Assembly: GCA_036841525.1 (NCBI GenBank) | Contig: DAITVZ010000002.1 | Span: forward strand, 5,693-69,692 | Direction: 5' to 3' | Length of the DNA stretch: 64,000 nucleotides | From: Chloroflexota bacterium | GTDB taxonomy: Bacteria; Chloroflexota; Anaerolineae; JAAYEA01 | Part shown: positions 33,277-34,749 of the stretch, one piece after another | Numbering within the stretch: the stretch's first letter is position 1 | Layout: each line of letters opens with the position of its first letter | Notes under the pieces: generated by a model | The model's input: only the letters and a program-made list of their open reading frames with translations | What the model was told of the DNA's origin: nothing | Databases searched by the model: none | Program-made: the position numbers and the translations under genes

Positions 33277-34749
33277 ATGTACCAGTTGGGACTCTTTACC
33301 GAGACGGGAACGACCCACCTCGCCGACGCGGCCATGGAGATCCTAGAGCGCGTCGGCGTGCTCTGTCAGAACGTCGAGCTGCTCCAAGCCCTCGCCGCCT
33401 GGGGTGCGCGCGTGGACCGAACGAGCCAGATGGCCAGGTTCCCGCGTCCTGCCGTGGAGGCTTTCGCCGCGGCCCTGCGCCGCGAGACCGGGAGCAAGCG
33501 CTCCACCAAGCTGGAGACGGTTCAACAGGACTATAGCGTGGCCGCGAGCGGCAGCGCCCAGGTAGCAACGCGCTTGCGCGCTCCGGACTTGCCCAGTCTG
33601 GGCACGCAGGTGGCTCAGTTCTACCTCGACCACCGCACGGGCGAGCGCCGTTCTGGGACGCGCGCCGATCTGCTCACACTGATCCGGTTGGGCGAGGCCC
33701 TGCACGGACCGGACGGCGTGGGCCATAGCCTGTTGCTGCAGGACGTTCCCCCGTTGCTCGAGCCTCTGGAGGCCGCCCTCCTCCTGGCCGAGAACGCCAG
33801 CCGCCCCGCCGGCGCCTTCGCCTGGAACGTGCGGCAGGTGGATTACCTCATCGAGATGGGCGAGGTGCTGGGCATCCCGAACTGGTACACCCTTGGGGCG
33901 ATCTGTTTCTCGCATCCCCTGCGCTTCGACCAGGACGTCGCCGACCGCTTTGTGCGCCGGGTGAAGGATGGGGCGCCCACAGGCATTACGGGCATGCAGG
34001 TGAGCGGCGCCACGACGCCGGTCACGGCAGCCGGCTACGTTGCGGTGAGCGCCGCCGAGTTCGTTGCCGCCTGGATCGCGGCGCGCGCCCTCAACCCCGC
34101 CGTGCCCCTGGTTGGGTCCATCTGGGGCGGCACGGTGGATATGAAGACCGGCTTTGTCAGCTATTGCAGCCCAGATGGCATGCTGCGTGCCTTCGCGCTG
34201 GCCGAATTTCTGCGCCGCTGGTGTGGCCAGCACGTTGTGGTGGGCGGCGGCGAGTATTGCGACGCCCGGATGCCAGGCCGCTACGCCGCGCTGGAGAAAG
34301 CCTATAAGGCCATGACCATCGCCGCCTTCACCGGGGCGCACCCCATGGTCGGCGAGGGCATGCTCGAGAGCGGCAAGACCATCAGCCCGGTGCAGCTCAT
34401 GCTGGACCGCGAGTACTCCCTGGGGGTTCAGATGCTCGCCGGCGAGATCGAGGTCACGCCGGAGACCATCGGCATGGACGCCATCCTCGAGGTCGGCCAG
34501 GGGCTGGATACCAGCTACCTGCAGACGTCTCACACGCTACAGCACTATCGCGACAACCTCTGGCTGCCCAGCATACTCAGCCGTACCGGGTGGAACGGCT
34601 ATGAGGAAGAGGAGATCGTCTTGGCACGTGCCAGGCGCAAAGTGGAGGAGCTTATCGCTTCCTACCGCCAGCCGCAGGTCGATCCCGCCAAGCTTGCCCA
34701 GTTGCAACGGATCGTCAGCCGGGCCCGCCAGCGGCTGCTGAGCGACTGA
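33277..34749 (+). CDS. trimethylamine methyltransferase (MttB) superfamily protein, non-pyrrolysine member (substrate unknown; e.g. quaternary-amine:corrinoid methyltransferase-like)
   Basis: 490 aa with MttB-family blocks ([40 protein letters not shown]...[14 protein letters not shown]). No in-frame TAG, so not a pyrrolysine-containing MttB. AAAGGAG ribosome-binding site. Confidence 0.75.

Follow-up and report, generated by a model that had tools for sequence, protein, structure and literature searches.

The window analysed here is a 64 kb stretch (65% G+C) of a Chloroflexota metagenome-assembled genome, and within it, at 33277-34749 on the plus (+) strand, lies a gene for a 490-residue protein of the MttB superfamily that lacks pyrrolysine (Pyl) and belongs to a glycan-associated clade with no characterised members. 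The open reading frame (ORF) is a real gene. It starts with ATG, runs for 490 codons and contains a single in-frame stop, the terminal TGA; its G+C content at third codon positions (GC3) is 0.86, as expected for a genuine gene. A deposited twin of identical sequence carries the name 'hypothetical protein GXY76_20620 [Chloroflexi bacterium]', and the same protein is found in several samples, encoded by at least 16 contigs. A first-pass annotation, made from the sequence alone, had reported a 490-residue product without an in-frame UAG, and both the terminal TGA and a tyrosine at the Pyl column (see below) bear this out.

The MttB-like gene is the second of three closely spaced genes. The first, at 32222-33247 (+), encodes a 341-residue (alpha/alpha)6-toroid protein of unassigned function, from a family for which Pfam has no model; its longest ORF extends from 32120, and homolog lengths together with independent gene calls make 32222 the likeliest true start. 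Upstream of this start lies a promoter-like site at 32147-32175 (+; TGGGCA-17-TATAAT, 10 of 12 positions matching, by consensus match only), one of 3 such sites compared with 0.5 expected in shuffled sequences. Between the toroid gene and the MttB-like gene there is a gap of 29 nt, in which the ribosome-binding site AAGGAG precedes the MttB-like ATG at a distance of 7 nt. After a further gap of 22 nt follows a glycoside hydrolase (GH) of family 95 at 34772-37069 (+), the alpha-L-fucosidase/galactosidase family (Pfam Glyco_hydro_95_cat, E=1.8e-181, plus N- and C-terminal domains), preceded by the ribosome-binding site GAGGAGG. A bidirectional terminator-like hairpin with a 13-14 bp stem at 37561-37594 closes both these genes and a convergent one, and no terminator-like hairpin was found on the plus strand between 32222 and 37069. 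In a second organism (L166) the three genes occur in identical order, at 75, 76 and 84% identity for the toroid, MttB-like and GH95 products, respectively. The short gaps, the strong ribosome-binding sites, the flanking promoter-like site and terminator and the gene order kept in L166 therefore identify the three genes as one predicted transcription unit with the MttB-like gene in its middle.

The toroid protein was considered as an obligatory partner of the MttB-like protein and rejected: apart from L166, no homolog of it adjoins other clade members, the family to which it belongs greatly outnumbers the MttB clade, and its fold match lacks specificity. That family, with more than 4,700 scored matches, mostly in Anaerolineae, is represented twice in the window, by the operon gene and by a paralog of 26% identity at 28945-30234 (-), which carries an N-terminal Cys-rich DUF3795 domain. 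Several NCBI records name the family 'nitrogen fixation protein NifH', apparently a mis-annotation that has spread.

Against Pfam, the 490-residue protein matched MTTB (PF06253) over model positions 33-497 of 500 with E=1.7e-47 and 162 bits (cutoff 25). With the NCBIfam equivalog model for trimethylamine methyltransferase (TIGR02369) it reached 169.7 bits, below the cutoff of 525. The MttB-family motifs named in the first-pass annotation were recovered in three cases out of four, as DMKTG at residue 288, SPDG at 298 and a ten-letter block at 390; the fourth, 'QAG', is absent, with LAG at 387 instead. An AlphaFold2 model (pLDDT 90, pTM 0.88) displays a TIM barrel with a C-terminal helical extension, and superposes on the structures 7xcl, 9yce, 2qne and 4yyc with TM scores of 0.73-0.77 over approximately 505-515 alignment columns, the C-terminal helices included. 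MttB, MtgB and the Sinorhizobium meliloti (S. meliloti) homolog matched about equally well, at 19-20% identity, and beyond the MttB family there was no significant structural match to the model (next-best E=0.02 or worse). Among 56 core columns, defined as conserved in at least 70% of 106 superfamily representatives outside the clade, 53 are identical in the window protein. Assignment to the superfamily as a member without Pyl, as first proposed, is thus upheld by the Pfam score, the fold and the residue at the Pyl column.

The solved relatives are distant. Bit scores were 81 for MttB, 70 for the S. meliloti homolog and 66 for MtgB, with only the C-terminal 270 residues aligning; the phmmer alignment to MtgB covers residues 201-469 only. 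A HMMER scan of 1.84 billion cluster representatives (50% identity) returned 2,981 superfamily representatives, 125 of them at E<=1e-30. The top 150, all uncharacterised, scored at least 119 bits against the window protein. Because these outscore both MttB and MtgB, the window protein clearly appears to lie outside the groups of either enzyme. Homolog searches instead placed it in a tight clade of proteins of 465-496 residues that are 45-76% identical to it. Among GTDB species representatives the clade occurs at 75 loci, all in metagenome-assembled genomes belonging to glycan-degrading phyla. Its hosts are in the majority Armatimonadota, and include Chloroflexota/Anaerolineae, Planctomycetota, Kiritimatiellota, Lentisphaerota, several candidate phyla, Brockarchaeota and Nitrososphaerota. 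Carriers with long or complete sequence records include OY970296.1, OY969415.1 and JBGLNR010000001.1. Judged by Pfam labels and protein lengths, none of 270 homologs is fused to a B12 domain. The literature searched holds no description of the clade, its pocket signature or its glycan-operon context. We conclude from these comparisons that the MttB-like gene is a predicted structurally intact member of a previously undescribed and tightly conserved clade of the MttB superfamily.

The glycine-betaine site of MtgB has been defined experimentally as Y97, R312, H348 and F356, with Y97 as the cation-pi partner and R312 as the residue that binds the carboxylate (PMC13080624), and the equivalent of R312 is reported to be conserved in MtcB, MtpB, MthB and MtyB, all of which act on acidic quaternary amines (PMC13080624, PMC12155760). 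In MttB, Tyr364 is catalytic (PMC9842639). Residues at the corresponding columns were counted in 78 full-length clade members, using correspondences that agree between pairwise and multiple alignments. The R312 column holds Val321 in the window protein and is variable in the clade, with Pro in 39, Ala in 10 and Arg in 2 of the 78 members. The column shared by MtgB H348 and MttB Tyr364 holds Val358 (Ile in 29 and Val in 28 members), which falls in a gap of the pairwise alignment relative to H348. At the position of F356 there is Gly366, a glycine in 77 of 78 members. Pyl334 of MttB corresponds to Tyr327 (codon TAT, 34255-34257), which is Tyr in 76 of 78; in the nearest 100 superfamily representatives, too, Tyr occupies this column more often than any other residue.

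In place of these determinants the clade has a pocket signature of its own, consisting of D118, H150, W183, C210, H213, M240, D288, E326 and Y327. Each is kept in 68-78 of the 78 members, and the signature vanishes in the next-closest representatives outside the clade. Assignment to the pocket was made by alignment to known pocket columns and by DSSP strand ends. Since 53 of 56 core columns are kept, the known substrate determinants are lost and a distinct signature is present, the scaffold looks functional and the substrate pocket alone looks rebuilt. Comparison of the defining residues, which are absent here, predicts that the protein is not a member of the MttB (trimethylamine), MtgB or acidic quaternary-amine groups, and an MtgB-like or acidic quaternary-amine function was rejected on the same residues. 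The first-pass annotation had presented the protein as kin of the quaternary-amine demethylases; with Val321 at the R312 position, Val and Gly at those of H348 and F356, and only 66 bits to MtgB, this headline is not supported.

The genomic surroundings of the clade were assessed by a census in which the Pfam families of the immediate up- and downstream genes (126) were compared with those of control genes 5-6 positions away (129). Family counts, taken from the top 25 families, are lower bounds. No single partner family emerged among the 126 immediate neighbours. The families seen were GFO/IDH/MocA (at least 7), GH123 and AP_endonuc_2 (at least 6 each), URO-D (at least 5) and sulfatase (at least 4), followed by CBM9 (at least 3), GH42 and heparinase (at least 2 each) and GH95 (at least 1), and 59 immediate neighbours lie on the same strand with a gap of less than 150 nt. 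Taken together, glycan and sugar families account for at least 34 of 126 immediate neighbours compared with at least 10 of 129 controls (odds ratio 4.4, p=5e-5). URO-D genes, which occur at a density of 2.6 per 100 kb and in 23 of 79 loci, display no enrichment at immediate positions (at least 5 of 126 versus at least 4 of 129, p=0.75). Because glycan families are enriched and URO-D genes are equally frequent at control positions, the specific association of the clade is with carbohydrate-active genes, and the URO-D-like genes are genomic background of its hosts. The idea that the latter are dedicated partners was accordingly abandoned, there being no enrichment at the ±1 positions over the ±5/6 control. 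A link to polar-lipid or osmolyte turnover, which had been suggested from a nearby GDPD gene and sulfatases, is likewise weak; the tight link is the operon with GH95 and the enrichment of glycan neighbours. A second conserved operon type of the clade was seen on Planctomycetota-type contigs (L002, L003, L008 and L020), where an SPL-like gene (PF20903), a GH123 gene and the clade gene follow one another in the same direction, with an L-fucose-isomerase-like gene near the block.

In ten loci labelled by Pfam, GH123, GH42, GH95 or GH2 repeatedly stands directly beside the clade gene, and no B12-binding gene lies within ±10 kb. Corrinoid proteins were then sought with a MetH-derived seed, with the motif DxHxxG...SxL...GG, and with jackhmmer followed by a hidden Markov model (HMM). 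Across 86 loci (4,358 ORFs, and later 1.28 Mb translated in six frames) exactly one was found, in L027. This locus carries, on one strand, a URO-D gene, an MttB-like gene with the full signature, a xylose-isomerase-like TIM gene, a corrinoid protein (PF02607+PF02310) and another URO-D gene. L097 belongs to the same population as L027, and only in these two loci is a corrinoid protein near a clade gene.

Seen from the corrinoid protein, the order TIM protein, corrinoid protein, URO-D recurs in all 11 of the closest corrinoid-protein loci. Of the 80 corrinoid-protein loci from metagenomes, 38 contain URO-D-like genes, and a clade gene is present in L097 only. The module, in which the TIM protein is of the AP_endonuc_2 type, is found in L086-L097 (for example at 9191-11727 of L097), and its URO-D member lacks the HxC zinc motif, with HSDG at that place. 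It is a putative, uncharacterised corrinoid methyltransferase system in its own right. An indirect link between the clade and corrinoid proteins through the TIM protein, which stands before the corrinoid protein in metagenomes and is often found after clade genes, was rejected, as the TIM genes on the corrinoid side and on the clade side are not orthologous and their only match has 21% identity.

A Pfam scan of all GC3-supported ORFs over the 64 kb provided the gene map of the window. Apart from the URO-D-like genes, it is rich in glycan and 6-deoxy-sugar catabolism, with genes for GH95, a BNR sialidase-like protein, an enolase-superfamily protein (MR_MLE), class II aldolases and xylose-isomerase-like TIM proteins, and two each for GH2 and sulfatase; GDPD also belongs to this glycan-related neighbourhood. 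The glycan-utilisation neighbourhood proposed in the first-pass annotation is confirmed by this map. The same holds for its statement that no B12-binding gene lies within 30 kb, which can be extended to the whole window: no B12-binding domain was found by Pfam in any GC3-supported ORF, and an HMM built from 80 corrinoid-protein homologs found no match in the six-frame translation. No cobalamin riboswitch was detected in the window, L027 or L097.

Six URO-D/MtaA-like genes had been proposed in the window; four are solid by Pfam or iterated HMM, and the other two are remote candidates of 14-16 bits. The best NCBIfam models for the four are of the MtaA/CmuA type at 38-66 bits, far below the cutoffs of 235-400. 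The gene at 13960-15204 (+; Pfam URO-D, 1.5e-22) has MtaA/CmuA as its best NCBIfam match at 53.6 bits, far under the cutoff of 235, and retains the HxC motif and a later Cys in aligned columns. It is a possible candidate for the methyltransferase partner of the MttB-like enzyme. The gene at 23915-25060 (-; Pfam URO-D, 3.1e-20) is 32% identical (E 1e-41) to the URO-D conserved beside corrinoid proteins in metagenomes. A tandem pair occupies 43041-45081 (-): its members, at 43041-44042 and 44020-45081, match Pfam URO-D at 5.9e-20 and 2e-22; the former is 32% identical (E 2e-46) to URO-D_b, the form partnered with corrinoid proteins, and the latter has lost the HxC motif. The two remote candidates flank this pair, one on each side, to give a local cluster of four related genes at 41694-46367. 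They are unannotated ORFs of 441 residues at 41694-43019 (+) and 419 residues at 45108-46367 (-), scoring 14.1 and 15.8 bits, respectively, with a URO-D-like HMM and matching nothing in Pfam or NCBIfam.

Several further features of the window were recorded. A c-di-AMP (ydaO/yuaA) riboswitch at 48889-49031 (-), with 80.6 bits where the gathering score is 38, is located immediately upstream of a gene at 46476-48839 (-) that fuses an amino-acid permease to a universal stress protein, which suggests that c-di-AMP controls a transporter of osmolytes or amino acids. A tRNA gene (61090-61162 (-), Rfam, 70.5 bits) is located between genes for a xylose-isomerase-like TIM protein and an S-adenosylmethionine (SAM) methyltransferase. 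At 52259-54571 (-) GH2 carries an SCP2 sterol-carrier domain at its C-terminus, a fusion of domains that is unusual. The adjacent ORFs at 19723-20142 and 20167-21492 (+) match positions 2-92 and 109-160 of the UGSC model, respectively, suggesting a split gene, a frameshift or stop-codon read-through such as that for selenocysteine.

These observations can be combined in several ways. The reading we favour, with a confidence that falls somewhat short of even, is that the gene encodes an intact corrinoid-dependent first methyltransferase (MT1) that works with a distally encoded corrinoid protein on a non-acidic, glycan-derived methyl donor; it is drawn entirely from comparison. A small methylated compound would bind in the mouth of the TIM barrel, where its methyl group would be presented to the Co(I) of a corrinoid protein for attack. 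The gene for the corrinoid protein would lie in another part of the genome, and its product would serve several methyltransferases, as does MtqC in Eubacterium limosum. Degradation of glycans that contain fucose, galactose or GalNAc would set free the donor, for example a methylated sugar; the residue comparisons predict that neither trimethylamine nor an acidic quaternary amine such as glycine betaine fills this role. Corrinoid dependence, the identities of the corrinoid and second-methyltransferase (MT2) partners, and the kind of compound that donates the methyl group are all points that we infer.

Function as an MT1 is made likely by several lines of evidence. The conserved core is retained together with the C-terminal region, the main docking element for the corrinoid protein when MttB and MttC form their complex (PMC9842639). 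Every characterised relative is active as a corrinoid methyltransferase, one clade member sits in a cluster of URO-D and corrinoid-protein genes, and dispersed MT1 genes that share one corrinoid protein are known in the superfamily. A glycan-derived donor is suggested by the operon with GH95 and by the neighbour enrichment. Because the branch is unstudied, has none of the known substrate residues, resides in sugar-degrading operons and, outside one lineage, is not found beside a B12 carrier, the usual label is probably wrong and the substrate probably new. The caveat attached to the first-pass annotation, that the partner might be encoded elsewhere or the substrate be another methylated compound such as a methylated sugar, fits the data better than its unsupported quaternary-amine headline.

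A number of results weigh against this proposal. A corrinoid protein adjoins a clade gene in one lineage only among approximately 80 non-redundant loci (1.28 Mb), and from the side of the corrinoid protein the conserved partner is URO-D_b, not the MttB clade. Pfam matches of the window ORFs include neither a corrinoid protein nor a pterin-binding methyltransferase (MeTr) domain, in a scan not aimed at activase families, and URO-D genes are not enriched next to the clade gene. The census counts are lower bounds. The neighbouring glycoside hydrolases come from several families and so do not point to one particular sugar. None of the residues that function in the pockets of MttB and MtgB is kept, so that a changed type of reaction is conceivable.

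A more specific and rather unlikely version of the favoured proposal would make the clade the donor-binding component of an anaerobic cobamide-dependent carbohydrate demethylase. A methylated sugar such as O-methyl-fucose or O-methyl-galactose, liberated by the co-transcribed glycoside hydrolases, would then give up its methyl group to a shared, distally encoded corrinoid protein, and His150, Cys210, His213 and Glu326 might form a Lewis-acid or proton-donor site that activates the ether. If true, this would give the P450 sugar demethylases, which depend on O2, an anoxic equivalent.

The strongest competitor to a corrinoid-dependent MT1, to which we give about a one-in-four chance, is that the protein is no longer a methyltransferase and has become a corrinoid-independent carbohydrate enzyme, such as an isomerase, lyase, hydratase or hydrolase, whose TIM-barrel pocket would serve in the oxidative or hydrolytic degradation of glycans. 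The lack of a corrinoid protein in some 79 of 80 loci would follow naturally, as would the absence of specific linkage to URO-D genes. Tight same-strand coupling to GH123, GH42 and GH95 is consistent with such a role, as is coupling to GFO/IDH/MocA and xylose-isomerase-like TIM genes, which are typical of pathways that oxidise and isomerise sugars, and the new pocket set of Asp, Glu, His, Trp, Cys and Tyr would suit sugar binding too. However, a protein that had given up corrinoid docking and methyl transfer would hardly be expected to keep 53 of 56 core columns and the C-terminal docking extension. The superfamily members characterised so far are all corrinoid methyltransferases (PMC12155760), structural matches outside the MttB family are insignificant, and one clade member does adjoin a corrinoid protein.

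All characterised members without Pyl use quaternary amines (PMC12155760), so an ordinary osmolyte methyltransferase acting on glycine betaine, choline or phosphocholine, carnitine or a similar compound has to be considered, with a distal corrinoid protein and an incidental glycan context. A pocket rich in aromatic and acidic residues could bind a cation, and a GDPD gene, which could release choline headgroups, occurs in the window (55474-56964), in L010 and once among the upstream neighbours. We nevertheless regard this as unlikely. The Arg equivalent to R312 is missing, its column being Pro in 39 and Arg in 2 of 78 members; the H348 and F356 equivalents are Val/Ile and Gly. Identity to MtgB and MttB is approximately 20%, compared with 31% between those two enzymes (PMC9842639), and it is glycan genes, not transporters or kinases for betaine or choline, that are enriched at the immediate positions.

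Still less probable is a corrinoid-dependent MT1 whose donor is unrelated to glycans (methanol, a methylated thiol or a methylamine) and which is merely co-regulated with carbohydrate genes. At the level of the family (PF06253, fold and core columns) it is supported equally with the favoured reading. The glycoside hydrolase families are heterogeneous, many loci have no recognisable glycan gene adjoining the clade gene, and Cys210, His213, His150 and Glu326 could, by analogy with the zinc site of MtaB, coordinate a metal. Against it stand the significant glycan enrichment at immediate positions, often on the same strand with gaps below 150 nt, and conservation of the GH95 operon in two organisms. 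Finally, a true trimethylamine methyltransferase whose Pyl codon was lost to sequence error can be discounted almost entirely: the TAT codon is one substitution from TAG, but the only stop is terminal, Tyr is kept in 76 of 78 clade members from independent assemblies, the identical protein recurs across several samples on at least 16 contigs, the TIGR02369 score of 169.7 bits is below the cutoff of 525, and MttB Tyr364 is replaced by Val. This was an error the first-pass annotation had itself named as fatal to its claim, which on this point stands.

The finding has consequences for annotation practice. Metagenomic studies routinely read PF06253 matches without UAG as 'quaternary-amine methyltransferase' (PMC10805028), and in Brockarchaeota such matches have been read as trimethylamine methyltransferase (PMC8065059). 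As clade members have none of the residues that determine those substrates and lie within glycan operons, any inference of methylotrophy or of methylamine turnover drawn from them is unsafe in the host lineages, and that of trimethylamine methylotrophy in Brockarchaeota (PMC8065059) may need re-examination. In Candidatus Brockarchaeota archaeon JZ-2.bins.136 (L051) the 'MttB' at 2933-4340 belongs to the clade, with 61% identity in the best segment, and two URO-D-like genes lie within 3 kb of it. Only six substrates are known in the superfamily, and a strict pocket signature together with some 80 genomic contexts makes the clade a well-defined target for a seventh substrate class. Through it, B12-dependent methyl transfer may be connected with the anoxic degradation of polysaccharides. 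Resting on comparison throughout, the result is best taken as a testable lead and a caution on how such genes are annotated.

Among known systems, the closest solved protein is MttB of Methanosarcina barkeri (PDB 7XCL/7XCN; 81 bits, TM 0.76), whose MttC-docking C-terminal region is present in the window protein. In contrast to MttB, the window protein has Tyr327 for Pyl334 and Val358 for Tyr364, its source is a bacterial metagenome-assembled genome and not a methanogen, and neither MttC nor MtbA adjoins it. MtgB of Desulfitobacterium hafniense (PDB 2QNE, 9YCE) resembles it in combining a TIM barrel and C-terminal extension (TM 0.75-0.77), in having no Pyl and in sharing the superfamily-conserved columns. 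The two are approximately 20% identical, R312, H348 and F356 of MtgB are replaced by Val, Val and Gly, and unlike the MtgB system the window gene sits in a GH95 operon, with no adjacent corrinoid protein or methylcorrinoid:tetrahydrofolate methyltransferase.

Eubacterium limosum, an acetogen with the Wood-Ljungdahl pathway, encodes 42 MttB paralogs, of which MtpB, MtcB and MtyB all use MtqC and MtqA (PMC12155760). These enzymes, and MthB acting on phosphocholine, are without Pyl like the window protein, and the shared MtqC is the best precedent for an MT1 with no adjacent corrinoid gene. They differ in using acidic quaternary amines, with a conserved Arg as reported (PMC13080624; compared by description, not sequence) that the clade does not conserve.

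The URO-D-family methyltransferases (the MT2 enzymes MtaA and MtbA, CmuA, CdmB, and O-demethylase MT1 enzymes such as MtvB and OdmB) bear a likeness to neighbours in the window and not to the MttB-like gene itself. This family includes MT1 enzymes that cleave ethers and halomethanes (PMC13222342), and relatives of the window URO-D-like genes are conserved partners of corrinoid proteins in metagenomes. For the speculative sugar demethylase, the parallel is the cytochrome P450 carbohydrate demethylase acting on 6-O-methyl-D-galactose in marine polysaccharide degraders, which removes methyl groups that block sugar catabolism (PMC6292453). In the literature searched, carbohydrate demethylases are O2-dependent P450 enzymes only (PMC6292453), and no anoxic sugar-demethylating enzyme is described. 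The analogy is functional, that of an enzyme encoded among glycan-degrading genes, and the folds are unrelated. Whereas the P450 reaction is oxidative, requires O2 and releases the methyl group as formaldehyde, a corrinoid route would proceed under anoxia and keep the methyl group available.

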